Below, piece by piece: positions 21,420 to 54,412 of a DNA stretch of 64,000 bases. The stretch's first letter is position 1, and each line of letters starts with the position of its first letter. Made by a program: the position numbers and the translations under genes. This DNA comes from Eubacteriales bacterium (GTDB taxonomy: Bacteria > Bacillota > Clostridia > Oscillospirales > CAG-272): positions 51,178-115,177 of the forward strand of contig JBGVRH010000046.1 in the NCBI GenBank assembly GCA_045128275.1, in the 5' to 3' direction. The notes beneath the pieces were generated by a model. It was given only the letters and a program-made list of their open reading frames with translations. It made no database searches and had not been told where the DNA came from.

Positions 21420-21565
21420 TTCAAATTTGGGTTTGTCGAATAGATACAAGATACGGAGATACAAGATACAAGATATAGAACGGCTGTTGCCACAAGGTTA
21501 TTTCATATCTTGTATCTTTGTATCTTGTATCTTTGTATCTTTGTTTCTCACCGACAAAACGCAAT

Positions 21566-21567
<2 letters not shown>
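21420..21567. mobile_element. TIR-bounded long-hairpin element, (GATACAA)n stem type
   Basis: Ends are TTCAAATTTGGGTTTGTCG and CCGACAAAACGCAATTT. Arms are (GATACAA)n and (TTGTATC)n around a 28-nt loop. The right end overlaps the Clp ATPase stop codon. Confidence 0.6.
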
Positions 21568-23953
<2,386 letters not shown>

Positions 23954-27601: not shown

Positions 27602-27817
27602 GCGATTTTGACCCATAAAATGGCACTTTTTCGGCATTTTAAGCGGTTTTTGAGCCAAAAAAACGATATTTGAAATCAAAACACCTCAATTTGATTTGGG
27701 ACAAATGATGATTTTGAGCAAAGATCGAAACTCTAATTTACAGCTGTATAATCACGGACGGATATTTCAAATGCAAATCTCCGTGTATTGAGGAATTGTC
27801 TAATAAAAGCAAGAGGG

Positions 27818-29032
27818 ATGGTGGTTGTTGTGACTAATCAAGAAAAGGGCTTGGAGTTTGAAAAGCGGTGCTTTTCAAAGCTAGTGGATCTAAATTTTAC
27901 GGATTTATCTTTGACACGAAATACCGATAATGGTGCAGATATTATTGGAACATTAAATGGAACTAGGTATGTTTTCCAATGCAAAAACCATAAAAAGCCT
28001 CAGGGAAATAGATGTGTTCAAGAGGTGATTGCTGCGCAAAAGTTATATAAAGGTAATAGGTGTGTTGTTATTTCACATAGTTCGTTTACTTCTGCGGCAA
28101 TTGCTTTGGCTAAAGCTAATAACTGTATTCTTATTAAAGCAAATGTTTTTTTTGAGTTGTCTGATTTTCCTCCAAAAGATTACTCTGCGCAATTTGATCA
28201 AAACACTCCAGTGTATGATTTTGAATATCAACTAATTGAAAAATATGAAGAAATAAAGAAGAGGTTAGGGAGAACTCCTAAGTGGGAGGAACTTGATGCA
28301 CATACCCGTTATGTAATAACGAAGAAGTATAAAAATTATAGCATATTTTTGTCTTCAATAGGCGATAAAAAATGTACGGCTAAGCATTCAGACGATGAAC
28401 TTAAAAAAGAATATATGCGTATAAGAGAACTTTTGAACAGAGTTCCCACAGGTGCCGACATCCGCGCTTATAGTTCATTCCCATATAACCAGTTTCATGA
28501 GTATCCGTTAACCAAACTGCAAAAAGAATGTGGAGATCGACCTAATATAGAACGTGGGGTATCGAAGGAAGCATTAACACATTCATATTTTGAATTGGAG
28601 AAAAAACTAGGCCATCCTCCCGCTGTTAAAGAAATTGATCAATTTGGAACATATAGGTCGTCATATTATGTTCGCAGGTGGGGGAGTATAGACAACTTCC
28701 TGCTAGAAATTGGCAGAACGAGGACTTCTGCTGGATTACCTAGACGTTATACCAATGATGAGGTAATTGCAATATATTCACTTATAAAGATATTGCTATC
28801 TTTGGTAAAAGAGAGTGATAATTATGAAATCAATCAAACCGTTCTAGAACAACTTCAGTTTAATAGTGGAACGCTCATTTCGCCAGCTACCTTTTCAAAC
28901 AAATTTGGTGATTGGAAAGCTTTTTGCACATATTTAGAAGAAAACAATATTAACAATGAATTATTAAAAATCGTGAGGCGAATTCGTTGCGAAGGAATAC
29001 AAGTTCTGTTTACGGATACAGTACCGTCATAA
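27818..29032 (+). CDS. Mrr-like restriction endonuclease domain protein with HEAR-type repeats
   Basis: 404 aa, low GC. The N-terminus (...DNGADIIGTLNGTRYVFQCKNHKKPQGNRCVQEV) resembles the Mrr_cat D..(E/Q)xK core. It is followed by three ~45-aa helical repeats (..LGRTPKWEELD.., ..LNRVPTGADIR.., ..LGHPPAVKEID..). Confidence 0.65.
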   Translation: MVVVVTNQEKGLEFEKRCFSKLVDLNFTDLSLTRNTDNGADIIGTLNGTRYVFQCKNHKKPQGNRCVQEVIAAQKLYKGNRCVVISHSSFTSAAIALAKANNCILIKANVFFELSDFPPKDYSAQFDQNTPVYDFEYQLIEKYEEIKKRLGRTPKWEELDAHTRYVITKKYKNYSIFLSSIGDKKCTAKHSDDELKKEYMRIRELLNRVPTGADIRAYSSFPYNQFHEYPLTKLQKECGDRPNIERGVSKEALTHSYFELEKKLGHPPAVKEIDQFGTYRSSYYVRRWGSIDNFLLEIGRTRTSAGLPRRYTNDEVIAIYSLIKILLSLVKESDNYEINQTVLEQLQFNSGTLISPATFSNKFGDWKAFCTYLEENNINNELLKIVRRIRCEGIQVLFTDTVPS

Positions 29033-29473: not shown

Positions 29474-30799
29474 ATGTCCCCCTTTATCATAGCCATCATC
29501 CTCTTCGCCATCACCTACGTCCTTCTCTTCACCCTGCCCAAGGCGCGCTCCTACATAGCCCTTTGCTCGGCGGTGATCTTCTCGGTGTGGCTGACCTTCT
29601 TCTGCGCTGACATCGAGTTCGGTCTCGGTACCATCGTGGGTGCCATCGACTTCAATATCCTCATGATGATCGCGGGCACCATGGGCATCGTGACCCTGTT
29701 CATCGAGTCCAAAATGCCCATGCGGATCGCTGACGTGATGCTGTCCAAGTTCAAGAACGTCAAGATGGCCATTGTGGCCATGGCGGTGCTTTCGGGCGTG
29801 GTGTCGGCCTTCGTGGACAACGTGGCCACGGTCTTGATGATCGCCCCCATCGCTCTGGCGGTGTGCAAGAAGCAGAATATGTCCCCCGTCCCCGCCATCA
29901 TCTCCATCGCGGTCTCCTCCAACCTGCAGGGCGCGGCCACGCTGGTGGGCGACACCACCTCCATCCTGCTGGGCGGTTACGCCGGCATGAACTTCTTCGA
30001 CTTCTTCTGGTTCCTCGGCCGTCCCGGTATCTTTTGGGCGGTGGAGCTGGGCGCGGCGCTGACTGTGGTGATCCTCCTGTTCCTCTTCCGCAAGGAGACC
30101 AATCCTCTGACCCTCACCGACAAGACCGAGGTCACAGACTACGTTCCCTCCTACCTCATGGTGGGTGTTGTGGTGGCGCTGATCCTGGCCTCCTTCATCC
30201 CCCAGCCCGCGGGCGGCGCGCTTTTGACTCTATACGAGCTTCGCAACGGTATCATCTGCATGGTGCTTTTGTTGGTGGGCATCGTGATCAATCTCTGCCG
30301 TACCAGGAGCTTTGAGTCCACCAAGGGTGTGTTCAAGGAGATGGACTACCAGACCCTGCTCCTGCTGGCTTCCCTCTTCGTGGTCATTCAGGGCATCACC
30401 TCGGCGGGGGTTATCGACAAGCTGGCCGAGCTTCTGGTGAGCCTCGGCGGCGGCAATCTGTTCCTCATGTACACCGTCATCGTCTTCGCCTCGGTGCTGA
30501 TCTCGGCGGTGGTGGACAACATCCCCTACGTGCTGACCATGCTCCCCGTGGTGACGGGGGTGGCCCAGGCCATGGGGGTGGAGCCTTACGTCCTGTACTT
30601 CGGCCTCTTCGTGGGCGCGACCCTGGGCGGCAACATCACCCCCATCGGTGCCAGCGCGAACATCACGGGTATCGGTATTCTCCGCAAGGAGGGGCATGAG
30701 GTCAGAGCGAAGGACTTCATGAAGATCAGCGTGCCGTTTACGCTGACGGCGGTGCTTTCGGGGTATTTGTTTATTTGGGTTTTCTGGGGGCTTTTGTGA
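29474..30799 (+). CDS. ArsB/NhaD/CitMHS-superfamily permease
   Basis: 441-aa polytopic protein with internal duplication, typical of ion-transporter superfamily permeases. Confidence 0.7.
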   Translation: MSPFIIAIILFAITYVLLFTLPKARSYIALCSAVIFSVWLTFFCADIEFGLGTIVGAIDFNILMMIAGTMGIVTLFIESKMPMRIADVMLSKFKNVKMAIVAMAVLSGVVSAFVDNVATVLMIAPIALAVCKKQNMSPVPAIISIAVSSNLQGAATLVGDTTSILLGGYAGMNFFDFFWFLGRPGIFWAVELGAALTVVILLFLFRKETNPLTLTDKTEVTDYVPSYLMVGVVVALILASFIPQPAGGALLTLYELRNGIICMVLLLVGIVINLCRTRSFESTKGVFKEMDYQTLLLLASLFVVIQGITSAGVIDKLAELLVSLGGGNLFLMYTVIVFASVLISAVVDNIPYVLTMLPVVTGVAQAMGVEPYVLYFGLFVGATLGGNITPIGASANITGIGILRKEGHEVRAKDFMKISVPFTLTAVLSGYLFIWVFWGLL

Positions 30800-30802
30800 T
30801 CA

Positions 30803-30889
30803 CGCCCGCAGGGCATATCTCGCCCGAAGGGCATATCGTGCCAAACGGGCATATCTCGCCCAAAGGGCATCTCGCGCGCCGTTAGGCGC
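30803..30889. repeat. array of ~18-nt mini-hairpin units (orientation A)
   Basis: CGCCCGCAGGGCATATCT / CGCCCGAAGGGCATATCG / TGCCAAACGGGCATATCT / CGCCCAAAGGGCATCT... Starts 3 nt after the permease stop. It is the reverse complement of 31302-31372. Confidence 0.9.
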
Positions 30890-30919: not shown

Positions 30920-31294
30920 ATGGACAAGATCACCATACGCGAGTTATCCATAGATTTGACAGTTGACATTACGAAGGTTTGCGATCCACTCAGAGGCCGC
31001 AGTATCTTCATCAACCAGCTTCTCCGTGCCTGTTCCTCTATCGGCGCGAACGCCAGTGAAGCCAGATACGCGCAGAGCAACGCTGACTTTATCAATAAGC
31101 TTGAAATCGCGCTGAAGGAGTGCAACGAGACCGATTATTGGTTGGAAATACTGGTAAAGACAAACTCCATCAGTCAAGACGATTATCGCAGATTGTGCAG
31201 TAAATGCAGTCACATCAAGCGAAAGCTGATCGCGTCTATCACAACTGTTAAGAACAAAACAAATTCACAGTTCCCTACAGAACCGCAACCTTAA
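30920..31294 (+). CDS. four-helix-bundle protein (23S rRNA intervening-sequence protein / Avd family)
   Basis: 124 aa, QLLRACSSIGANASEARYAQSNADFINKLEIALKECNETDYWLEIL matches the family signature as remembered. Lower GC than flanks. Confidence 0.8.
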   Translation: MDKITIRELSIDLTVDITKVCDPLRGRSIFINQLLRACSSIGANASEARYAQSNADFINKLEIALKECNETDYWLEILVKTNSISQDDYRRLCSKCSHIKRKLIASITTVKNKTNSQFPTEPQP

Positions 31295-31301
31295 AGTAAT
31301 T

Positions 31302-31372
31302 GCGATATGCCCTTCGGGCACGATATGCCTACGGCGCGATATGCCCGTTGGGCGCGATATGCCCTTCGGGCG
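31302..31372. repeat. array of ~18-nt mini-hairpin units (orientation B)
   Basis: GATATGCCCTTCGGGCAC / GATATGCCTACGGCGC / GATATGCCCGTTGGGCGC / GATATGCCCTTCGGGCG. Starts 7 nt after the four-helix ORF stop. Confidence 0.9.
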
Positions 31373-34166: not shown

Positions 34167-34238
34167 CGATATGCCCTTCGGGCGCGAGATGCCCGTTGGG
34201 CGCGAGATGCCCGTTGGGCGCGGTATGCCCTGCGGGCG
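34167..34238. repeat. array of 18-nt mini-hairpin units (orientation B)
   Basis: GATATGCCCTTCGGGCGC / GAGATGCCCGTTGGGCGC / GAGATGCCCGTTGGGCGC / GGTATGCCCTGCGGGCG. Starts 13 nt after the upstream stop. Confidence 0.9.
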
Positions 34239-34256: not shown

Positions 34257-35396
34257 ATGCTCCCCTGCCCCTACGCGAAAAAATGCGGAGGCTGCTCCCT
34301 CCAGAACCTCCCCTATGAAGAACAGCTCCACTTGAAGCAGGCCAAGCTCATTAAGCTCCTTGGCCGTTTTGGCCGTGTGGAGGAGATCATCGGCATGGAG
34401 GATCCCACCCACTACCGCAACAAGATCCAAGCGGCCTTCCGCTCCAAGAGTGGGAAGGTGGTGTCGGGTGTGTACCAGTCTGCCTCCCGCCGCATCGTGG
34501 AGGTGGAGTCCTGTATGCTGGAGGACGAGTGCGCCGCGCCTATCCTGGCTACCGTCCGCAAGCTCTGCGCCTCCATGAAGATCCGTCCCTATGATCTGGA
34601 ATCGGGTCAGGGCTTTCTGCGGCACGTCTTGATCCGCAAGGGCTTTGTGAGCGGGGAGATCATGGTGGTGCTGGTCACAACCAAGGGCGAGTTCCGATCC
34701 GAGCGATCCTTTGTGAATGAACTGCTCCGTCGCCATCCCGAGATCACCACGGTGGTGCGGAATATCAACCCCACCGACACCGCCCTGTTTCTGGGGAGCG
34801 AGAGCCATATCCTCCACGGGGAGGGCTACATCACCGACCGCCTCTGCGGGCTGGAGTTCCGCATCAGCCCCCGCTCCTTCTATCAGGTCAATCCCATCCA
34901 GACCGAGATCCTGTACGGCAAGGCCAAGGAGTTCGCGGGTCTGACTGGGAGTGAGACCGTCATCGACGCCTACTGCGGCACGGGTACCATCGGGCTGACC
35001 GTGGCCTCGGGTGCCAAGGAGGTGATCGGCGTTGAGGTGAATAAGGACGCGGTGGCCGATGCTATGGAGAACGCCAAGCGCAACGGTGTCACCAACGCGG
35101 TCTTCCACGCCGCCGACGCGGGGGAGTTTATGGAGGCCATGGCCGCGAAGGGGCAGAGTGCCGACGTGGTCATCACCGACCCGCCGAGAGCGGGGTGCAG
35201 CGGGAAGTTTTTGCACAGTCTTATGAAGCTGGCTCCCAAGAGGATCGTGTACGTGTCCTGCAATCCCGAGACGTTGGCGCGGGATCTGTATACCTTGAGT
35301 AAGGGCGGGTATAAGGTGAGGAGGATACAGCCGGTGGATATGTTTCCGTTTACCTCCCATGCGGAGGTGGTCGTGGGGGTGGAGAGGAAAATATGA
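34257..35396 (+). CDS. RumA-family RNA (uracil-C5)-methyltransferase (no TRAM domain)
   Basis: 379 aa. CPYAKKCGGCSLQN Cys cluster, DAYCGTGTIG SAM motif, YVSCNPETLARD...VDMFPFTSHAEVV. Confidence 0.85.
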   Translation: MLPCPYAKKCGGCSLQNLPYEEQLHLKQAKLIKLLGRFGRVEEIIGMEDPTHYRNKIQAAFRSKSGKVVSGVYQSASRRIVEVESCMLEDECAAPILATVRKLCASMKIRPYDLESGQGFLRHVLIRKGFVSGEIMVVLVTTKGEFRSERSFVNELLRRHPEITTVVRNINPTDTALFLGSESHILHGEGYITDRLCGLEFRISPRSFYQVNPIQTEILYGKAKEFAGLTGSETVIDAYCGTGTIGLTVASGAKEVIGVEVNKDAVADAMENAKRNGVTNAVFHAADAGEFMEAMAAKGQSADVVITDPPRAGCSGKFLHSLMKLAPKRIVYVSCNPETLARDLYTLSKGGYKVRRIQPVDMFPFTSHAEVVVGVERKI

Positions 35397-35974
35397 GTTT
35401 ACCTGAACGAAAGAACCATCGTTTAAGACCATATGATTACGGAAAAAGCGGCTACTATTTCATTACGATCTGTACAAACAACCGCTTGCCGCTTCTATCT
35501 GTGATCACCGCACGGGAACAAAACTCCCCTTTGGTTCCCTCTACCCCCATTGTAGGGAGCGGTGCCCTCACCGCTCCGCAACCTTTGGTCACCCTTACAC
35601 TATTTGGTAAGACGGTACTGGAAAGCTGGAACAAAATTGAAACCATGAATGAAAATATCGCAATTGATAAGTATATTTTCATGCCCGACCATATTCACGG
35701 CATTATTCGTATAGATAACCCCGAAAAGATCCAACACCCAAAAGAGAATTTTGACTTTCAAGTGGCGGAGCGGTGGGGGCACCGCTCCCTACCGGGGGTT
35801 ATCCGAGATTTCAAATCCGTGACCACCCGTCAATACAAATCCATGTTTCATGTGAATGAATCGTTGTGGCAGTCCTCTTATTATGACACAGTGATCCGCA
35901 CACGCGAACAGTATATTGATATATGGAATTATATCGAGAACAATCCCCAAAAATGGTTATTTGAACACAGTTAA
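35393..35974 (+). CDS. REP-associated tyrosine transposase-like (RAYT / IS200-like Y1 HUH) protein
   Basis: 193 aa. YDYGKSGYYFITICTNNR, HUH motif FMPDHIHGII, C-terminal catalytic-Tyr region LWQSSYYDTVIRTREQYIDIWNYIENNPQKW. Lower GC. ATGA overlap with the upstream stop. Confidence 0.8.
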   Translation: MSLPERKNHRLRPYDYGKSGYYFITICTNNRLPLLSVITAREQNSPLVPSTPIVGSGALTAPQPLVTLTLFGKTVLESWNKIETMNENIAIDKYIFMPDHIHGIIRIDNPEKIQHPKENFDFQVAERWGHRSLPGVIRDFKSVTTRQYKSMFHVNESLWQSSYYDTVIRTREQYIDIWNYIENNPQKWLFEHS

Positions 35975-39470: not shown

Positions 39471-40265
39471 ATGAAACGAACACTCTTAACTATTGATTCC
39501 AATCTTTTCCCTACCGAGTACCGCCCCCTGCTGACAGGCGCGCCCGTCTACGACAGCTCCTGCTCCCCTGCGGCGAGGGTGTACTACATCGACCGCGACG
39601 GGGGGTACTACCTCAAGACCCAGCCCGTGGCCAAGGGGTCTCTGCGCCTTGAGGCCGAGAAGGGCCGCTTCTTCTTTGAGAAGGGCTTGGGCGCGGAGGT
39701 GCTTTCCTACACCACCGTGGGGGAGTCCGATTGGCTTCTGACCCGCCGTGTGGTGGGGGAGGACTGCACCCATGCCGAGTATCTGGCACAACCCGAGCGG
39801 CTGGTGGAGCTGTGGGCGGAGATCCTGCGTCGACTCCACGATCTGCCCATTGAGGGCTGTCCCGCGCCCGATTATCTGGGCAAATATCTGGCCTTGGCGG
39901 AGGAGAACTACCGCACGGGCAACTATGACAAGAGCCAATTCCCCGACAGCTTCGGGTACACCTGTGCCGAGGAGGCGTGGGGGGTTCTGTCCGAGGGCAA
40001 GCACCTTTTGAAGGCCGACACCCTCATCCACGGGGACTACTGTCTCCCCAACGTCCTGCTGGACGGGTGGAGATTCTCGGGGTTCATCGACCTTGGGAAC
40101 AGCGGTGTGGCGGATCGACACATCGACCTGTTCTGGGGTGCGTGGACGCTGGGGTTCAATCTGCACACCGATGCCTACCGTGGGCGGTTCTTCGATGCCT
40201 ACGGGCGGGATAAGGTGGACGAGGACTTGATCCGCGTGGTGGCGGCGGCGGAAGTGTTTGGGTGA
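39471..40265 (+). CDS. aminoglycoside phosphotransferase family (APH(3')-like) kinase
   Basis: 264 aa with catalytic loop HGDYCLPNVLL and IDLGNSGVADRHIDL. Confidence 0.8.
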   Translation: MKRTLLTIDSNLFPTEYRPLLTGAPVYDSSCSPAARVYYIDRDGGYYLKTQPVAKGSLRLEAEKGRFFFEKGLGAEVLSYTTVGESDWLLTRRVVGEDCTHAEYLAQPERLVELWAEILRRLHDLPIEGCPAPDYLGKYLALAEENYRTGNYDKSQFPDSFGYTCAEEAWGVLSEGKHLLKADTLIHGDYCLPNVLLDGWRFSGFIDLGNSGVADRHIDLFWGAWTLGFNLHTDAYRGRFFDAYGRDKVDEDLIRVVAAAEVFG

Positions 40266-40296
40266 ATGCGAAATGCAAAATGCAAAATGCAAAATC
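40266..40296. repeat. heptamer tandem repeat (ATGCAAA)n
   Basis: atgcgaa atgcaaa atgcaaa atgcaaa, beginning at the nucleotide after the APH stop codon. Confidence 0.85.
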
Positions 40297-40317
40297 AAGA
40301 ACGATATAACGAAAACC

Positions 40318-40713
40318 ATGAAGAAGACAAAACCTTTATTCATCCCCTGTACAGAGAAGCGCAAAGGCTCTACCGCCTACTACGAATTCCAATACTGCAA
40401 GCGTGACCTGACCGTGGAGCAAGCGGTCAAGTCGGATGCGTGGACGTACTGGGCGGAGGATTCCCTGCTGGTTCACATGGACGGGGAGCATGAGCTGTTT
40501 CAGCACTACATAAAGCCGTATATGTCCGCGCCCCACGCGCCAAATGGGAGTCGGGTGTACTTCTACGCGGGAGTCAACTACTACACCCGCGAGGAGACCG
40601 CCGAGATGCTGGATAAGATCAAGGCAGACCGCCCCGACGAGTGTGAGGTGCTGATCCCGTGGCTGGAGCGGGCGGCGGGGGAGCTTTACGGATTCTATAT
40701 TTTGGGGATCTGA
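40318..40713 (+). CDS. hypothetical protein
   Basis: 131 aa from MKKTKPLF. The upstream part of the ORF is repeat-derived. Confidence 0.5.
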   Translation: MKKTKPLFIPCTEKRKGSTAYYEFQYCKRDLTVEQAVKSDAWTYWAEDSLLVHMDGEHELFQHYIKPYMSAPHAPNGSRVYFYAGVNYYTREETAEMLDKIKADRPDECEVLIPWLERAAGELYGFYILGI

Positions 40714-40738
40714 TACCCTTACTACATAGGAGAAAACC

Positions 40739-41320
40739 ATGAAGAAGAAAAAAACATGCATCCCCCTCCCCGAGGGGTGCGAGACCTTTCGCGGGTCGGG
40801 TATAGTCGGGTTGACGGCGGCTTGTCTGGATGCTACCTTGCTCCTGACCGCGCTGTTTCTTCCCGTTCTCCTGTGCCTTGCCTTACAGGAGCAGAACGCC
40901 CGCCACTTTCTGCTGATCCTGCTCCTGATCCCCCTTCTGATCTGTGTTTACATTCCGGTTGGTTGCATCGTCCTCCTGCTCTCCCGCCTGTTCGTCAAGC
41001 CCCGCGTGGGGATTCTGGACGGACGGATCTACATGACGAACTCACGACGCTCCATCCCTATGGCAGAAATTCGCTCCATGGAGCTGTTTCTCGGAAGCTA
41101 CAGCCACAGGCGCACAGCTCAGCCCACGCACCTGACCGTTACACTTCCCCACGACGAGACCCTCGTGATCTCCCATCCTTCCCCTCGTCTTCTCCGTACC
41201 TTACGCAGATCTCTTCCCGACGTACAATTTACCGTGAATTGGAAGTACCGCGTATGGATTAACGGCGGTATCGGACTGATCGGAGGCGTGATCTTGGGGA
41301 TCGTAATTCTTTGCCTATGA
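40739..41320 (+). CDS. hypothetical membrane protein (bPH-like C-terminal region)
   Basis: 193 aa with two N-terminal TM helices and one C-terminal TM helix. Confidence 0.5.
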   Translation: MKKKKTCIPLPEGCETFRGSGIVGLTAACLDATLLLTALFLPVLLCLALQEQNARHFLLILLLIPLLICVYIPVGCIVLLLSRLFVKPRVGILDGRIYMTNSRRSIPMAEIRSMELFLGSYSHRRTAQPTHLTVTLPHDETLVISHPSPRLLRTLRRSLPDVQFTVNWKYRVWINGGIGLIGGVILGIVILCL

Positions 41321-41345
41321 CCTTTTACCCCCATAAGGAGCCTAT

Positions 41346-42299
41346 ATGACCAACTGGAAACAAATCACCCTCACCACCCCTCGCCTCATCCTGCGCCCGT
41401 GGGTGGAGACCGACGCCGAGGCCTTGTACCGCTTTGCCCGTGACCCTCTGGTGGGGCCGCCCGCGGGCTGGCCGCCTCACACGTCGGTGGAGAACAGCCG
41501 CGAGATCATCCGCACTGTCCTTGCGGCGCGGGAGACCTATGCCATGGTGTTGCGCTACGATACAACCGACTCGCTCAGCGGGGAGGTCATCTCTGCGGGG
41601 ACACCCGTGGGGAGCGTGGGCATCATGTTCAAGGGCTGCGGCTCTTACCCGCACATGGCGAACACCGAGGCCGAGATCGGCTACTGGGTGGCTCTGCCCC
41701 TCTGGGGGCGGGGACTGGTGCCCGAGGCGGTGAAGGCCTTGCAGGCGCGGTGCTTTACCGACTTGAAGCTGGACGGTCTGTGGTGCGGGTACTACGAGGG
41801 GAACGAAAAATCCCGACGGGTACAGGAAAAATGTGGTTTTACGCCGCGGTGCGACATGGAGATCCCGCCCCATCCCTTAAACGGGGCGACGAAGGAATAT
41901 TTCACCTACCTGTCCCGCGAGGCGTGGGAGGTCATGCAAGAGCCTGTGACCCATGAAATGAGCCTGCGGGAGGCCCCCTATCGCGCGGTGGCCTCGGGGC
42001 GCAAGGTGATCGAGATGCGGTTATTTGACCCCAAGCGGCAGATATTGCAGGCGGGGGATGAGATCCGCTTCACCCTTGTGGGAGGAGACGAATCCGTCAC
42101 CGCCCTTGTGGTGGGGCTTCACTACTTCCCTTCCTTTGCCGAGTTGTATGAGGCCATGATCCCCCGCGTGGGGGCGGTGGGCCTGGGGTATGGCGAGGGG
42201 GAGGTGCCCCATCCCGACGATATGCTGGAGTATTATTCCGAGGATGCCATTGCCCGCTTCGGGGTGGTGGGGATCGAGATTGAAATTCGGAATTCGTAA
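41346..42299 (+). CDS. GNAT N-acetyltransferase (RimJ/RimL-like) fused to an ASCH domain
   Basis: 317 aa. N-terminus LTTPRLILRPWVETDAEALYRFARDP... is GNAT-like. The C-terminal ~110 aa (VIEMRLFDPKRQILQAGDEIRF...) is ASCH-like. Confidence 0.75.
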   Translation: MTNWKQITLTTPRLILRPWVETDAEALYRFARDPLVGPPAGWPPHTSVENSREIIRTVLAARETYAMVLRYDTTDSLSGEVISAGTPVGSVGIMFKGCGSYPHMANTEAEIGYWVALPLWGRGLVPEAVKALQARCFTDLKLDGLWCGYYEGNEKSRRVQEKCGFTPRCDMEIPPHPLNGATKEYFTYLSREAWEVMQEPVTHEMSLREAPYRAVASGRKVIEMRLFDPKRQILQAGDEIRFTLVGGDESVTALVVGLHYFPSFAELYEAMIPRVGAVGLGYGEGEVPHPDDMLEYYSEDAIARFGVVGIEIEIRNS

Positions 42300-42317
42300 T
42301 GCGTAATTCGTAATTGG
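42285..42317. repeat. heptamer tandem repeat (CGTAATK)n
   Basis: attcgga attcgta atgcgta attcgta att. Overlaps the last 4 codons and the TAA of the GNAT-ASCH gene. Confidence 0.85.
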
Positions 42318-42355
42318 AGAGCGGTGACGGGGGCGGTATCGGATCCCGGTCGCGA

Positions 42356-42557
42356 TTCAAATTTGGGTTTGACGGTGAGGCGGCCGCGTCCTTGACCCTC
42401 CCCTTTGGGGAGGGGGGACCGCGGAGCGGTGGGTGAGGTTTGAGAAGCATGTTGTGTGTCAACGGTTTTCACCTCATCCACCACCTTCGGTGGTCCCCCT
42501 TCCCCAAAGGGGAAGGTCGGGGAACGGGGGAACGAACCGATCACTAAACAGCAATTT
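42356..42557. mobile_element. TIR-bounded long-hairpin element, GC-rich mini-palindrome stem type
   Basis: Ends are TTCAAATTTGGGTTTGACGG and CCGATCACTAAACAGCAATTT. Arms are inverted copies carrying CCCTCCCCTTTGGGGAGGGG-type local palindromes. The loop ends AACGGTTTTC. Confidence 0.6.
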
Positions 42558-42591
42558 TTTTCACAACATTCAACAGAAACGAGAACATCAC

Positions 42592-44124
42592 ATGGACTAC
42601 GAACACATCCAATGCCACGGTGAGGGCTTGACTCTCCCTCGCGGCTTTGCCGAGCGGATGCGGAGCATGCTGGGGGATGACTTCCCCGCCTTCTGCGACT
42701 CCTACGCCAAGGACATCCACCCCTCCCTGCGGGTGAACACCCTGAAGCTGACTCCCGAGGGACTGCGGGAGATCGCGCCCTTCGTGGGGAGTGAGATCCC
42801 TTGGCAGAGAAACGGCTTTTACTACACCACCGACGGGGAGACCCGCCCCGGCAAGCACCCCCTCCACGAGGCGGGGGCGTACTACATCCAGGAGGCCAGC
42901 GCCATGCTTCCCGCCTCCCTGTGTCCCCCCAAGCCGGGCGAGCGGGTACTTGACCTCTGCGCCGCCCCCGGCGGTAAGGCTACTCAGCTGGCCGCCGCCC
43001 TGTGCGGTGAGGGGCTTTTGGTGGCCAACGAGATCCACCCCACCCGCGCGGGGATTTTGTCCCAGAACATGGAGCGCATGGGGGTACGGAACGCCGTAGT
43101 GACCAACGCCACCCCCGCCGAGCTTTCGGAAAAATTCCCCGCCTTCTTTGACAGGATCGTGGTGGACGCGCCCTGCTCGGGGGAGGGAATGTTCCGCAAG
43201 GAGGCGGATGCCGTGACCATGTGGAGTCCCGAGAACGTGGCTCTCTGCGCCGCGCGACAGGGTGAGATCCTGGAAGAGGCGGCGAAAATGCTCCGCGCGG
43301 GCGGGTACTTGGTCTACTCCACCTGCACCTTCGCCCCCGCCGAGAACGAGGGGGCGGTAATGAATTTCCTGTCCCGCCATCCCGAATTCGAGGTGGTTCG
43401 GTCTGCCGAAGACGCTGTTATAGAGTCCCGCGAAAGGGGACTTCTGGACGGCGGCAGACCCGAGTGGGAGGAGGAGTACGGTCAGTTCCCCGCAAGCATC
43501 GCGGATCAGGTGAAGGACACCTACCGCGTGTTCCCCCACCATTGCGACGGCGAGGGGCATTTCGCGGCACTCCTGCACAAGCGGGAGGAGGGTGGTGAAG
43601 TCCCCCTCTCCTCCAAGGAAGGCAAAAAGAAGAGCCGCAAGCCCGAAAAGCCAAGCGGCGGCAAGGGAAAGCCCGCGCCTGTGACCGTTGCGGTCAAGCT
43701 CCTTGAGGAGTTCTGCCGCGAGGTCATGGGGGGGATTCCTTCGTGGGTCGGGGAGACGGTTCCCTGCCTGTTCGGGGACAAGCTGTACCTGGTGCCCAAG
43801 GCTCTGTGCGGTGAAATCGACCCCACCGAAGCGTTGAAGGGTCTCCGCGTGCTGCGCGCGGGGCTCTGCGTGGGGACGGTGGTGGGTCTGGACAAGGGGC
43901 GCGGGCGGTTTGAGCCCGATCATGCCCTGGCGCTCTGCGCGGGGGCGGGAATCCGCACCCTTGCGGTGGACTATGACTCTGCGGTGGCTTACCTGCGGGG
44001 TGAGACGCTCCCCTGCGAATTACGGGGCTGGCATACCGTGAGCTACTGCGGGCTTCCCCTCGGCTGGGGCAAGGCCTCGGATGGGGTGATGAAGAATCAT
44101 TATCCCAAGGGGCTGCGGTGGTAA
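42592..44124 (+). CDS. rsmF: NOL1/NOP2/Sun-family rRNA cytosine-C5 methyltransferase (RsmF/RsmB-like)
   Basis: 510 aa from MDYEHI. SAM motif DLCAAPGGKATQLA, PCSGEGMFRK, STCTFAPAENE. Confidence 0.85.
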   Translation: MDYEHIQCHGEGLTLPRGFAERMRSMLGDDFPAFCDSYAKDIHPSLRVNTLKLTPEGLREIAPFVGSEIPWQRNGFYYTTDGETRPGKHPLHEAGAYYIQEASAMLPASLCPPKPGERVLDLCAAPGGKATQLAAALCGEGLLVANEIHPTRAGILSQNMERMGVRNAVVTNATPAELSEKFPAFFDRIVVDAPCSGEGMFRKEADAVTMWSPENVALCAARQGEILEEAAKMLRAGGYLVYSTCTFAPAENEGAVMNFLSRHPEFEVVRSAEDAVIESRERGLLDGGRPEWEEEYGQFPASIADQVKDTYRVFPHHCDGEGHFAALLHKREEGGEVPLSSKEGKKKSRKPEKPSGGKGKPAPVTVAVKLLEEFCREVMGGIPSWVGETVPCLFGDKLYLVPKALCGEIDPTEALKGLRVLRAGLCVGTVVGLDKGRGRFEPDHALALCAGAGIRTLAVDYDSAVAYLRGETLPCELRGWHTVSYCGLPLGWGKASDGVMKNHYPKGLRW

Positions 44125-44435
44125 ATTGCAGTTTATCGGTCTCCGACCGACAAACTGCAAGTGAAGCGCTCCCGCTGGTCGCATGAAGAGCGGCAGAGCC
44201 GCATGAAGCGCTCCCGTTGGTCGCATGAAGTACGCCATTCGGGCGCGATAAGGTGCAGATCCTTCGGATCTGTCCATTTAAAATAAAATTGAAACCCGAA
44301 GGGTTTCTTCCTTCATGCGGCAAAGCCGCGCTTCATTCACGCGTAGCGTGAACTTCACGCTCGCTTGCGAGCACTTCATGCGCCTTAGGCGCACTTCATT
44401 TGGGTTTATCGCAGAGCGATAAACCCAAATTTGAA
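44123..44435. mobile_element. composite hairpin-ended element with 28-nt conserved core
   Basis: Q hairpin AAATTGCAGTTTATCGG..CCGACAAACTGCAA, arms of ~20-nt mini-hairpin units, core GGTGCAGATCCTTCGGATCTGTCCATTT (44252-44279), and P hairpin ..TTTGGGTTTATCGCAGAGCGATAAACCCAAATTTGAA. Overlaps the rsmF TAA. Confidence 0.6.
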
Positions 44436-44478
44436 TCTCCCTCCATCTATATACATCATTTTCCGAAAGGACACTTTT

Positions 44479-46317
44479 ATGAACACCAAACCAAACACCT
44501 CCTCCCGCGCCGTCACACCCTGTATTCTGGGCTTTTCGGCGTTGGGTGCGTACTTCGCCGTTCTCTTTTTCGGCGGACTGCTCAATAGCGGCAAGGAGAG
44601 TATCCTTGACCCCGAATTCATCATCCATCTCCATCCCTTGATCTATGCCGTGGCGTGGCTGGTGCTGGCCGCCATTCTTGTGGTGTACGGCTCGGTCTCC
44701 AAGGGGTTTGTCTACGGCTTTTCATGGCTTTCCTCGGTGGGCTACGCGATCCTGACCGCCGTACTGGGGGAGAGCTATTTCCTCACCTTCGCCATGTGCG
44801 GGGTGGTGGCGATCATGACCGTAGCCTGCGGGAGGGCTTTGCGCGCTGACGTGGCCGTGACCAAGAAGAAGACCGAGAGCAAGGGGCTTTCCGCTCTTGG
44901 CGGTAAGGTGGCGGTAGGCATCGTAGCGGTGCTGGGCGGGGGCTTGACTCTGTTTTTGCTCCTCTCCTCCTACCTGTCCTACACCATGTCTCCCTCCGCC
45001 TCCACGGGGGTGTATGTTCAGCTCATGGAATTTCTGAAGAGCGGAATTTCCTTTGATACCACGCTGGAATTCGGAGAGTCGGTGTCCCATCTGGCGGCCC
45101 ATATCTCCCCCATCTTCCTGGTCTATCTGCCCTTCTACGCCGTAATTCCCTCGCCTGTGACCCTCCTGGTATTGCAAACTCTGGCTGTGTTCTCGGCGGT
45201 GGTGCCTATGTGGCTGATCTGTCGGAAGAAGGGACTGTCCCCCGCTCTTTCGGCGGTGGTGTGCGGTCTGCTCTGCCTGTTCCCCGCGGTGTGGGGCGGT
45301 GCGGCGGGGTCTCTCCATGAGTACGCTCTGCTCCTGCCTCTGCTTTTGTGGCTTTTGTGGGCCTTGGAGGCTCGCCGCAAGATCCTGCCTTGGGTCTTCG
45401 CCCTCCTCGTCCTCTGCGTGCGGGAGACCTGCGCCATCCATCTCTTCGCGGTGGGGGCATACCACGCGCTGACGGTGGGGAGCGGCGAGGATACGGCCAA
45501 GAAGGAGCGGGGCCGTGGACTGCTCCTCATGGGTGCTTCCCTTCTCTACTTCGTGGTCGCCATGGCGGTCCTGACCTACGCGGGTAAGGGGACGCTGATC
45601 ACCCGCTTTGACAACGTAACGGGCATCTATGGCACCGACTTCGGCACCCTTCTGCGGGAGATCTTCTACAACCCCGCCATCGCAGTCTACGAGATGCTGA
45701 CTACGGCCAAGCTGCACTATATCCTGTGCCTGCTCCTGCCTCTGGGGCTGATCCCTGTTTTCACTGGGAAGAAGGCGGGACTGGTGTTCCTGCTTCCCTT
45801 CCTGGCCCTCAATCTGCTCTCGGATTTCCCCTACCATTTCAGCCTGGACTTCCCCTACTCCTTCGGGGTCTCGGCTCTTGCTCTCTACCTCTGCGCCGAC
45901 GGGCTGGCGGGACTGACCGCAGATCGTGAGAAGGCTCTGACGGTGAAGCGGCTGACCACCCTGGCGGTGTGCTTTACCCTCATCGTGGGGGGCTTCCGTC
46001 TGGTGGGGTACGGGCTGTTCACCGAGTACGCCGTTCAGGGGCGGGACGAGGTGGCTTCCATGACCGAGCTTCTGGAGGCCGTGGAGGACGGCGCGCCCGT
46101 CAGCGCGTCGGGGCGGTTGATCCCCTCCCTGGCGGCACGGGAGGAGGTCTACTATCTCCACCAGGGACAACTGACCGAGTATGTGGTCATCGACCTGCGG
46201 GAGGAATGGGCCACCGAGGCGGACGCGAAATTTGATGAAAAATACTACACCGACAAGGGCTACACCGTGGTGAAGCGGTGCGCGGACGTTGGGGTGGTGT
46301 TGAAGAAAGGAACTTGA
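44479..46317 (+). CDS. DUF2079-like polytopic membrane protein
   Basis: 612 aa from MNTKPN with many TM helices. The region SHLAAHISPIFLVYLPFY is reminiscent of DUF2079. Confidence 0.6.
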   Translation: MNTKPNTSSRAVTPCILGFSALGAYFAVLFFGGLLNSGKESILDPEFIIHLHPLIYAVAWLVLAAILVVYGSVSKGFVYGFSWLSSVGYAILTAVLGESYFLTFAMCGVVAIMTVACGRALRADVAVTKKKTESKGLSALGGKVAVGIVAVLGGGLTLFLLLSSYLSYTMSPSASTGVYVQLMEFLKSGISFDTTLEFGESVSHLAAHISPIFLVYLPFYAVIPSPVTLLVLQTLAVFSAVVPMWLICRKKGLSPALSAVVCGLLCLFPAVWGGAAGSLHEYALLLPLLLWLLWALEARRKILPWVFALLVLCVRETCAIHLFAVGAYHALTVGSGEDTAKKERGRGLLLMGASLLYFVVAMAVLTYAGKGTLITRFDNVTGIYGTDFGTLLREIFYNPAIAVYEMLTTAKLHYILCLLLPLGLIPVFTGKKAGLVFLLPFLALNLLSDFPYHFSLDFPYSFGVSALALYLCADGLAGLTADREKALTVKRLTTLAVCFTLIVGGFRLVGYGLFTEYAVQGRDEVASMTELLEAVEDGAPVSASGRLIPSLAAREEVYYLHQGQLTEYVVIDLREEWATEADAKFDEKYYTDKGYTVVKRCADVGVVLKKGT

Positions 46318-47458: not shown

Positions 47459-47597
47459 TTCAAATTTGGGTTTATCGAAGAGATACAAGATACGGAGATA
47501 CAAGATACAAGATATGGAACGGATTATGCCGTAACGTTTTTTCATATCTTGTATCTTTGTATCTTGTAACTTGTATCTCGCAGAAAAACTGCAATTT
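47459..47597. mobile_element. TIR-bounded long-hairpin element, (GATACAA)n stem type
   Basis: Ends are TTCAAATTTGGGTTTATCG and CGCAGAAAAACTGCAATTT. The left arm GATACAAGATACGGAGATACAAGATACAAGATAT is identical to the copy at 21420. Confidence 0.6.
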
Positions 47598-47630
47598 GAA
47601 AGTAAACAAGAAACGAATCTAATGCCCCGA

Positions 47631-49283: not shown

Positions 49284-49316
49284 GCTTTTTGGGGAGCATC
49301 GATGACGATGCTCCCT

Positions 49317-49529
49317 TTCAAATTTGGGTTTATCGCAGAGCGATAAACCCAAATTTGAAGTGAAAAGTGAAGAGTGAAAAGTGAAGAGTGGAGGTGCAGA
49401 TCCTTCGGATCTGTCCATTTTTGATCAAAAAGAAGGAAACCGAAGGTTTCCCTCCTCACCTCTTCACTATTCACTATTACTTATTACTTCAATTGCGGTT
49501 TTCGGTCGCAGACCGATAAACTGCAATTT
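49317..49529. mobile_element. composite hairpin-ended element with 28-nt conserved core, (GTGAAGA)n stem type
   Basis: Perfect 18-bp P hairpin CAAATTTGGGTTTATCGC-aga-GCGATAAACCCAAATTTG, GTGAARA arms, core identical to 44252-44279 at 49393-49420, and Q hairpin AATTGCGGTTTTCGGTC-gca-GACCGATAAACTGCAATT. Confidence 0.6.
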
Positions 49530-54142: not shown

Positions 54143-54373
54143 AATGCGTAATTCGTAATGCGTAATTCGTAATGCGTAATTGCGGAAGCCCTTCGCCAAA
54201 GCGAAAGCCGATCTCATGGCAGTTCATGAGAGCTTTATGGTTGGAAAACATACCGTCCCCCAAGGAAATCGTTGCAAATGGGGATGGATGAAATTTCCCT
54301 ACCATGCAATCATATCTTTCCAAAGGCAAAATGCTCCATTCATTACGAATTGCGAATTACGAATTGCGAATTA
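54143..54373. repeat. inverted (CGTAATK)n heptamer arms around a ~160-nt unique centre
   Basis: Left arm aatgcgtaattcgtaatgcgtaattcgtaatgcgtaatt (54143-54181). Right arm cattacgaattgcgaattacgaattgcgaatta (54341-54373). Starts 3 nt after the lysA stop. Confidence 0.8.
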
Positions 54374-54412
54374 TTCCGTTTCTCCCTTCCCTGCCTCGAA
54401 AGGAGGTATCTC

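Follow-up and report, generated by a model that had tools for sequence, protein, structure and literature searches.

Several kinds of short, structured intergenic repeat are known from bacterial genomes. The repetitive extragenic palindromes (REP), bacterial interspersed mosaic elements (BIME), and REPINs of proteobacteria, which are mobilized by REP-associated tyrosine transposases (RAYTs), are multi-copy intergenic palindromes that form mosaics with short motifs, often lie beside terminators, and are thought to act on mRNA stability and termination. The Correia/CREE, ERIC, and RUP miniature inverted-repeat transposable elements (MITEs) and the pneumococcal BOX elements (boxA-boxB(n)-boxC) can carry terminator activity, and the Foldback (FB) transposons of eukaryotes possess long inverted arms of short tandem sub-repeats, and the whole element can snap back into a hairpin. 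Here, we describe two composite elements (element 1, 44123-44435; element 2, 49317-49529) in a 64,000-nt stretch of contig JBGVRH010000046.1 (assembly GCA_045128275.1), from a Eubacteriales bacterium of the Oscillospirales (CAG-272); this whole stretch is hereafter the window. Each element is bounded by two different terminal palindromes, P and Q. As palindromic mosaic intergenic repeats, they are of a familiar kind. In function and architecture, their nearest known counterparts are the REP/BIME mosaics, structured MITEs, and BOX elements, and their arms lie in or beside the Gut-1 RNA family of Rfam.

Gut-1 RNA (RF01706) was reported from human-gut environmental sequence, with 43 representatives, as probably a non-coding RNA (Weinberg et al. 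2010, Genome Biol 11:R31, PMC2864571); that description gives no context past "human gut only" and a likely small RNA (sRNA), and it is the only mention of Gut-1 or RF01706 in the literature searched. Arms of sister copies of the elements described here share with Gut-1 a series of tandem mini-hairpins split by a conserved short unit (GUGAAAU in Gut-1), and both come from uncultured gut bacteria. The elements differ in that the arms form a convergent pair within a bounded palindromic element, and the arms in the window are divergent. In the reading that we favor, to which we assign a probability of roughly 0.6, each locus is one copy of a non-coding mosaic foldback repeat that spreads as DNA and in which Gut-1-class arms are read convergently into back-to-back intrinsic terminators. 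The literature searched held no description of a P/Q-bounded family, of a design combining a convergent pair with terminators, or of Gut-1 inside a dispersed repeat.

The composite elements and their center

The initial annotation had placed P and Q hairpins at both loci, at opposite ends in the two copies, around an identical 28-nt core that keeps one orientation, and this arrangement was confirmed. Element 1 opens with an imperfect Q palindrome (44123-44162; AAATTGCAGTTTATCGGTC-TCC-GACCGACAAACTGCAAGT), the outer half of which is the element terminus and overlaps the TAA stop codon of an RsmF-like gene. Its left arm (44163-44251, + strand) consists of four (G/C)ATGAAG units, each with a variable mini-hairpin, an architecture that is Gut-1-like and whose + strand reads toward the center. 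The core hairpin (44252-44279, + strand; stem 44255-44262/44266-44273, TTC loop) has a CAGATCC/GGATCTG stem between conserved GGTGC and GTCCATT flanks, is terminator-like for the + strand although its T tail is weak, and is separated by an AT-rich spacer from hairpin 2 (44291-44307; GAAACCC-GAA-GGGTTTC), which is followed by CAATTTTATTTT on the - strand and is terminator-like for that strand. The right arm (44308-44395), made of TGAAG-plus-mini-hairpin units, runs toward the center on the - strand. The P palindrome (44396-44435; ATTTGGGTTTATCGC-AGA-GCGATAAACCCAAATTTGAA) has a perfect stem of 15 bp (44398-44430), and 44 nt separate it from the downstream ATG of a DUF2079 gene.

Element 2 begins with P (49317-49359, a perfect 20-bp stem), directly after the terminator hairpin of a CotF-like gene, and ends with an imperfect Q (49491-49529) that is inverted relative to that of element 1. 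Between them lie a left arm of GTGAARA heptamers with a 14-nt period (49360-49392, + strand; AGTGAAAAGTGAAG), a core identical to that of element 1 with the tail CCATTTTTGATC (49393-49420, + strand), a hairpin 2 followed by TTCTTTTTGATC on the - strand (49435-49451; GGAAACC-GAA-GGTTTCC), and a right arm of the degenerate heptamers TCTTCAC, TATTCAC, and TATTACT (49452-49490, - strand). The second small GAA-loop hairpin beside the core, also reported initially, is therefore present at both loci. The arms had been said to differ completely between the two copies, which proved too strong: a short unit containing TGAAG underlies both sets (GCATGAAG with mini-hairpins in element 1, GTGAARA heptamers in element 2), and, in each element, the right arm is an imperfect reverse complement of the left. 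Within the window, the core (GGTGCAGATCCTTCGGATCTGTCCATTT) has exactly two matches, both on the + strand, where shuffled sequences lead one to expect none, even at three mismatches. Both elements fold far better than their shuffles (element 1, -153.9 kcal/mol, z = -11.1; element 2, -103.2 kcal/mol, z = -13.1), and the predicted single-strand fold of each has two terminal hairpins and a long arm:arm stem with two small hairpins at its tip.

Beyond these two copies, a metagenome scan with the pattern GGTGC-N4-CCTTCGG-N4-GTCCATT, which leaves the variable stem positions free, returned 25 loci, and these, together with the related loci L015, L037, and L094 and the window copies, amount to about 30 composites. 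With the core on the + strand, they share a plan of terminal palindrome, array, core, AT-rich spacer of 17-24 nt, hairpin 2, second array, and other terminal palindrome. Hairpin 2 takes the form GGAAACC-GAA-GGTTTCC or GAAACCC-GWA-GGGTTTC and is missing from a few composites; array and core occur without P in L117, L118/L131, and L133. P lies to the left of the core in most composites, while Q does so in element 1, L134, L123, L015, and L037; the center is thus found in both orientations relative to P and Q, the outcome that recombination between the inverted arms would produce by flipping it. Chimeras also occur: L114 and L138 each join a heptamer arm to an opposite arm of 7-mers plus hairpins, which indicates that the arms need not pair with each other. 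The loops of P and Q vary, with both orientations occurring (e.g., CAGAG/CTCTG and GGAAC/GTTCC). In the composite palindromes, the outer half is of full length and the inner half is often truncated where the array starts, making the outer halves the true termini, and these outer 19-nt halves of P and Q are the terminal inverted repeats of the family.

The sequence of the center is consistent with the convergent terminators that were proposed for it at the outset. All 25 pattern matches are complementary at the free N4/N4 stem positions, with four stem variants among them, and L037 adds a fifth (GAAATCC/GGATTTC). Across the five, three of eight pairs show double, compensatory changes and none a one-sided change, and 97.5% of cells are paired, versus 17-50% in slid registers. 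The predicted stems are 7-8 bp for the core and 6-7 bp for hairpin 2. Past the core stem, the 12-nt tail on the + strand holds a mean of 6.4 T (23 copies), and past hairpin 2, the corresponding tail on the - strand holds 6.3 T (18 copies), such that each strand carries the stem-loop and U-rich tract of a bidirectional intrinsic terminator. The T-rich runs originally described past both hairpins hold for hairpin 2 on the - strand and for the core of element 2; that past the core of element 1 is weak. A consensus terminator scan flags 49396-49414 on the + strand and 44307-44291 on the - strand. Relative to the core, flanking genes are arranged co-directionally with it in seven cases (->->), against it in eight (<-<-), and divergently in three (<-->), and the lack of an orientation preference fits a symmetric, bidirectional device. 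Taken together, the compensatory core changes, the T-rich tails on opposite strands, the scan flags, and the placement in either orientation relative to genes support a center of putative convergent terminators.

Arms and Gut-1 RNA

An Rfam search of the related loci gave six matches to Gut-1 RNA (53.8-56 bits; gathering threshold, 50), one in each arm of L094, L115, and L127, every one on the strand that reads toward the center, and these three loci share the core and P/Q ends of the window elements. The Gut-1 consensus comprises three mini-hairpins with GUGAAAU between them. Each arm of element 1, with four (G/C)AUGAAG units and variable mini-hairpins, has a Gut-1-like layout built on another unit, and the units of element 2 lack hairpins. 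In the window itself, the right arm of element 1 scores 19.3 bits against Gut-1 (44368-44431, - strand; E = 0.29 in a 451-nt search), below the threshold of 50; a whole-window covariance scan at E <= 1 returned no Gut-1 match, and Rfam at gathering thresholds identified only transfer-messenger RNA (tmRNA) in the window. L133 and L037 carry mini-hairpins (GCCGCAAGCGGC) inside otherwise pure heptamer arrays, and the two arm types thus form a continuum. Neither of the exact P and Q strings searched for occurs in the alignment file published for Gut-1, showing that most published Gut-1 members lack these ends.

The arms also bear a strand-specific signal. In 13 of 15 informative cases, mini-hairpin arms have a better predicted fold when read toward the center than as the reverse complement (mean, -4.8 kcal/mol), and G.U pairs make up 47 of 400 pairs toward the center versus 14 of 336 in the reverse complement. 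Over whole interiors, the asymmetry is small (-1.1 kcal/mol), and in the P/Q stems a comparison of G.U with A.C is limited by too few in-stem mismatches and by register noise. The folding asymmetry of the arms points to selection at the RNA level, in a manner that is supportive rather than conclusive, several of the arms being related copies.

These results bear directly on an alternative in which the elements would be convergent cassettes of sRNA genes. Each half would then be an independent sRNA gene of the Gut-1 class, transcribed from a promoter of its own within or close to P or Q and ended by its own terminator, the product would act in trans, for example as a sponge for a protein that binds (G/A)UGAA(G/A), and termination of neighboring genes would be incidental. 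Both Rfam and Weinberg et al. 2010 (PMC2864571) class Gut-1 as a probable sRNA with covariation. The arms match on the strand that reads toward the terminator, and their folding asymmetry, as above, points to selection on RNA. CsrB and RsmZ are protein-sponge RNAs in which a short single-stranded motif is repeated between hairpins, and the arms share that layout. The short unit, however, varies by copy (GTGAAGA, AATGAAT, GCATGAAG, GTGAAAT, ATGAAAT), a variation that speaks against one sequence-specific partner, and the arms of element 2 lack mini-hairpins altogether. Further, heptamer arrays also stand alone, in either orientation relative to transcription (e.g., upstream of the tmRNA gene), and no conserved promoter was found, the Q hexamers TTGCAG...GATAAA having no invariant T and a loop-dependent spacing. 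We consider independent sRNA genes unlikely. A reading of P and Q as promoters was rejected: a consensus scan picks out neither, and the distance between the hexamers shifts with loop length.

Arrays of similar make occur at other places in the window. Eight perfect AGTGAAG heptamers (2486-2543), the same heptamer as in the arm of element 2, lie 5 nt upstream of the mature tmRNA 5' end, on the strand opposite the tmRNA gene (2113-2480, - strand), between a probable smpB terminator hairpin (2555-2572) and ssrA, and have no P, Q, or core. A gene for a 23S-rRNA-intervening-sequence protein, a four-helix bundle (30920-31294, + strand; Pfam PF05635, 82 bits), is flanked by inverted arrays (30799-30875 and 31302-31372) of the 18-nt unit GCGATATGCCCTTCGGGC, a short unit plus mini-hairpin; this follows the logic of the composite arms, but with protein-coding cargo. 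A third GCGATATGCCCTTCGGGC array is found at 34167-34238, upstream of an open reading frame (ORF) at 34257. Inverted AATGCGT/AATTCGT heptamer arms (54143-54181 and 54341-54375) flank a non-coding center of about 160 nt, with a + strand gene on either side; a GNAT gene has the same heptamer at its 3' end (42284-42315), and arrays of this type, which have no match in Rfam, are present in L013, L032, L043, and L098. An (AATGCAA)x4 array (40265-40295) follows the stop codon at 40265.

A second Rfam family, Termite-leu RNA (RF01730), gives a sub-threshold match to the window (49288-49372, + strand; 27.4 bits, gathering threshold 51) that runs from the CotF terminator across the P hairpin into the beginning of the array. 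The second hairpin of Termite-leu (AAAUgcGGG...CCCgcAUUU, then GUaaAaAUGAAAG) is similar to P plus the opening units of the array, and none of the related loci reached the threshold. P-like hairpins may exist in termite-gut bacteria, and we offer this as a lead only.

Dispersal, turnover, and the search for an enzyme

Copies of the elements lie in unrelated surroundings. L120 and element 2 share 97.2% identity over 213 nt, whereas the sequences flanking L120 are unrelated (41-44% identity); for L116 and L128, identity to element 2 is 92%; and L134 is 85% identical to element 1 (94% in the right half, 72% in the left arm). Further, L030, from a sister species (species bin SGB_7273), is syntenic with window positions 40317-46209, and its RsmF-DUF2079 spacer, of about 60 nt and without an element, is an empty orthologous site for element 1. 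At the same site, L037 (SGB_1696) carries a composite with the same right junction as element 1, made of Q, a core with two compensated stem changes, hairpin 2, and P, its arms being AATGAAT heptamers rather than GCATGAAG-plus-hairpin units. The initial proposal of a dispersed, probably mobile repeat with hairpin ends is thus supported by the multi-copy ends, by the 97.2% copy in unrelated flanks, and by the empty site. In the broad sense of a MITE or mosaic repeat, the family is short, non-coding, multi-copy, found in unrelated flanks, and polymorphic for presence and absence.

The same ends, TTCAAATTTGGGTTTATCG and GTAAATTGCAGTTTATCG, also bound three simpler foldback elements in the window, and a generic end motif (AAATTNNNGTTTATCG, at most two mismatches) occurs there 12 times versus 0.65 expected. 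The simple members each form a single long hairpin, with a P-type half (TTCAAATTTGGGTTTATCG) at one end and a Q-type half (CGATAAACTGCAATTT) at the other, and the interiors are AGATACA heptamer arrays or GC-rich palindromes. The member at 21420-21570, with a P-type left and a Q-type right end and AGATACA/TATCTTG heptamer arms, forms one long hairpin whose P end directly adjoins the ribosome-binding site of a gene on the - strand. That at 42356-42557 has a P-type left end, a Q-like right end, and GC-rich palindromic cargo. The third, at 47459-47600 (TTCAAATTTGGG...CTGCAATTTGAA; AGATACA arms; fold z-score, -11.4), sits between a bidirectional terminator and the 3' end of an alcohol dehydrogenase (ADH) gene. 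With these three and the roughly 30 composites, both the core and the hairpin ends extend well beyond the two loci for which they were first noted. Across the family, P ends almost always read TTCAAATTTGGG..., with TTC in 44-47 of 52; in full P hairpins, GAA is the pairing partner of this TTC. Q ends often read GTAAATTGCAG.

A scan of one genome per species with a P 16-mer found at least 112 loci. Among the matches listed, about half are single chance matches in unrelated phyla, and the 16-mer is multi-copy in at least about 20 uncultured metagenome-assembled genomes (MAGs) labeled Clostridia, Eubacteriales, Oscillospiraceae, or Acutalibacteraceae, mostly from ruminant and other animal guts; in many cases it is located about 140 nt from a contig end, a position typical of repeats that break assemblies. 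From the P-matched loci and the window, we extracted at least 39 paired elements of 94-587 nt, in which the ends are conserved and the interiors are unrelated, yet all palindromic. Recurring cargo comprises heptamer arrays, 18-22 nt arrays of short unit plus mini-hairpin, inverted pairs of GTAG-headed hairpins, and structured cargo of about 500 nt. The last was seen between family termini in three MAGs (L031, 4102-4593; L040, 5277-5798; L053, 3205-3744); it is rich in hairpins, includes a strongly conserved segment (GAGCTCCGCGCGGACGGC...GGGTTATCGGGTAT) with apparent compensatory changes, matches no Rfam family at gathering thresholds, and is a candidate for a structured RNA not yet described. 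Scans of viral contigs with P and Q 16-mers gave 37 and 43 single matches, respectively, none with a paired end; taking these as chance matches, the family is not phage-borne. The elements neighbor housekeeping genes, namely those for RsmF, DUF2079, Lon, CotF, zinc ADH, and GNAT. An exact-protein look-up of the CotF neighbor returned only one 1.8-kb contig, both ends of which lie inside elements. A contig of 100% identity (L001) is present in run SRR25030126. We know of no convincing match between the elements and operator or box motifs such as those of Spo0A, CodY, Rex, dif, or parS.

The exchange of interiors between fixed ends could, in principle, be the work of a site-specific recombinase, with P and Q as core sites (inverted arms around a short variable spacer) between which non-coding cargo cassettes are traded. 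The same ends do bound unrelated cargo, the P/Q loops vary and occur in both orientations, and L037 keeps P, Q, and core at the RsmF-DUF2079 site with different arms. Similarly, the GNAT-RsmF spacer holds a family member both in the window (42356-42557) and in L030, with right boundaries within 3 nt of each other, unrelated cargo, and reversed end order; independent insertion into the same short spacer could also have produced this. A lack of target-site duplication would likewise fit such an enzyme. Against it, no recombinase gene recurs near the elements among 743 clustered ORFs from the loci, the simple elements carry half-sites only, unlike the product expected of integration at a full site, and the chimeras and arm swaps can be accounted for just as well if copies undergo homologous recombination or gene conversion with one another. 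Nor do the elements form arrays like integron attC cassettes: they are scattered singly between housekeeping genes, with no recurrent recombinase. We regard recombinase-borne cassettes as very unlikely.

Synteny between the window and L037 stops past the P end at 47462-47479 (window 47479 versus L037 6091), and identity also breaks exactly inside P or Q for L115 versus L135 and for L128 versus L137, which suggests either that rearrangements take place at these repeats or that short-read assemblies become chimeric there. The cumulative GC skew of the window peaks at about 48-50 kb and then falls, with four of the five P/Q elements of the window within 8 kb of the peak, which may mark a replication terminus or an inversion boundary.

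Several known routes of spread can be compared. No target-site duplication was found at 49 elements, which is compatible with an HUH enzyme. For a MITE mobilized by a DDE transposase, the inverted termini (16-19 nt) are present and a flanking direct repeat is found at 0 of the 49. The family resembles MITEs and BOX elements in being small, non-coding, and multi-copy, with terminal inverted repeats, strong predicted structure, and a BOX-like tandem internal module, but it differs in this lack of duplications, in that neither the window nor some 0.75 Mb of related loci yielded a cognate insertion sequence, and in combining extremely heterogeneous interiors with ends conserved across species. The arm layout is also that of the eukaryotic FB transposons, by analogy only, the P/Q family being bacterial and 10-100 times smaller, with no related enzyme seen.

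The initial annotation had compared the two subterminal hairpins with the left and right ends of IS200/IS605-type elements and their derivatives, the PATEs. Under such a reading, which could equally take a REP/BIME form, a Y1 HUH transposase would mobilize the element as single-stranded DNA, recognizing its left and right ends by the P and Q hairpins. Several features agree with it: the elements are non-coding, the two terminal hairpins are related but distinct, and target-site duplications are absent. In a crude gene-orientation analysis, the P end points toward a gene start in 21 cases and a gene end in 10, and lies downstream in 12 of 16 co-directional contexts, a moderate bias that could reflect replication-strand bias; within the window, P-end polarity is split 2:2. 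Finally, the window encodes a RAYT-like Y1 protein (35393-35974, + strand) with a visible HUH motif (DHIHGII).

Other details weigh against it. The RAYT-like protein scores below the curated cut-offs of both Y1 models (Pfam Y1_Tnp, 22.9 bits, cut-off 23; NCBIfam REP_Tyr_transpos, 53 bits, cut-off 80), and a PDB sequence search with it gave no match. Its gene lies away from the P/Q repeats, with neither P nor Q within 5 kb, and carries instead its own in-frame inverted pair of GTAG-headed hairpins (GTAGGGAGCGGTGCCCTCACCGCTCC; 35552-35582 and 35762-35792), a classical REP signature that brackets the HUH motif. GTAG-type hairpins occur in the window at 35552, 35792, and 6223, and the pair in the RAYT-like ORF also recurs as cargo in P...Q elements of L043, L046, and L100; by analogy with REP systems, these hairpins, and not P/Q, are the likely substrates of the RAYT-like protein. 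REP/BIME repeats are imperfect palindromes of 20-40 nt with a GTAG head that flank the RAYT gene, whereas P and Q begin TTCAAATTT and GTAAATTGC, have no GTAG head, and form near-perfect palindromes of 15-20 bp, with stems much longer than the short, imperfect hairpins of REP, while a separate GTAG-hairpin repeat exists in these genomes inside P...Q elements. Unlike the ends of PATEs, P and Q are long palindromes whose outer halves also serve as ordinary terminal inverted repeats of single-hairpin elements, in which the half-palindromes pair together rather than forming separate left-end and right-end hairpins. The conserved boundary tetra- or pentanucleotide that had been anticipated is, across the 49 elements, only TTC, which is base-paired within the P stem and looks like part of the element rather than a separate target or cleavage motif.

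Searches for a cognate enzyme were likewise negative. Neither the 64-kb window nor the approximately 0.75 Mb of related loci contains a Y1-encoding insertion sequence with P/Q-homologous ends or any other parent element with such ends, and no Y1 gene stands next to an element in those loci. When the RAYT-like protein was compared with all loci by tblastn, the only matches were REP-like hairpins in translation, in L043, and all-against-all clustering of the 743 ORFs revealed no recurrent transposase or recombinase. The link to IS200/IS605 ends is thus not supported by the sequence covered, and we judge Y1-driven mobilization quite unlikely. An autonomous P...Q element was also considered and rejected, as distant end pairs (e.g., L026, 2417...6556) enclose ordinary metabolic genes and no enzyme gene. 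The RAYT-like gene start overlaps the stop codon of an upstream rRNA-methyltransferase-like ORF, with which it may be co-transcribed, and a plain spacer lies downstream. Elsewhere in the window, a low-GC island (0.42 versus about 0.59; GC trough at 28-30 kb) contains a gene (27788-29032, + strand) for a protein with an Mrr-type restriction endonuclease domain and homing-endonuclease-associated repeats, and is probably foreign DNA.

Proposed function and implications

In the mosaic foldback repeat that we favor, each half, read toward the center, would pass from a terminal palindrome through a tandem-unit array of the Gut-1 class (mini-hairpins or bare heptamers) to an intrinsic terminator. RNA polymerase arriving from either flanking gene would gain a highly structured 3' tail and stop at the center, such that the element would act as an orientation-independent bidirectional terminator or insulator, while also giving stable, hairpin-rich RNA ends. 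The repeat would spread as DNA, as a unit and without target-site duplication, and recombination between copies would reshuffle its modules, inverting the center, swapping arms, and yielding chimeras. Termination and transcription of the arms are here predicted from sequence.

Several observations weigh against this model. No promoter for the arms was found: the consensus scan flags none in P/Q, where there are only poor sigma-70-like hexamers at variable spacing, and arm transcription would therefore depend on read-through. At the center, CC separates the core stem from its T tail, the + strand T tail past the core of element 1 is weak (CCATTTAAAAT), and the GGTGC and GTCCATT flanks are more conserved than a plain terminator needs, their invariance suggesting an additional specific recognition beyond termination. 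In addition, the two co-directional genes around element 1 have only about 60 nt between them in L030; a strong terminator at this position would split a probable operon, and there is no obvious new promoter in the 44 nt before the DUF2079 ATG. The counts of gene orientation and strand asymmetry come from samples that are not independent, many copies being related. Lastly, no cognate transposase or recombinase emerged from the window, the 0.75 Mb of loci, or the viral-contig scans.

A broader possibility, which we hold to be unlikely, is that the P/Q termini constitute a cassette system for hairpin-forming non-coding cargo, including Gut-1-class pairs with terminators, REPIN-like GTAG pairs, and the structured RNA of about 500 nt, that is inserted, inverted, and exchanged at conserved chromosomal sites by an enzyme or RNA-level machinery recognizing the P:Q stem. 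If this were true, Gut-1 RNAs would be mobile, self-terminating RNA modules and not ordinary sRNA genes.

Since 2010, Gut-1 has been an orphan Rfam motif, seen in gut metagenomes only and with no organism, context, or function attached. It now gains host lineages, the uncultured Oscillospiraceae-like Clostridia of animal guts, and a genomic architecture of convergent pairs, putative back-to-back terminators, and conserved bounding palindromes. It appears, further, as a module of a dispersed mosaic repeat, for which the strand-specific folding signal argues for an RNA form. For the host genomes, the P/Q repeats fragment short-read assemblies and may mark points of rearrangement, and the activity that mobilizes them without target-site duplication is worth finding. 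If efficient, the compact center, of about 55 nt, would be a bidirectional terminator and a potentially useful genetic part for Clostridia.

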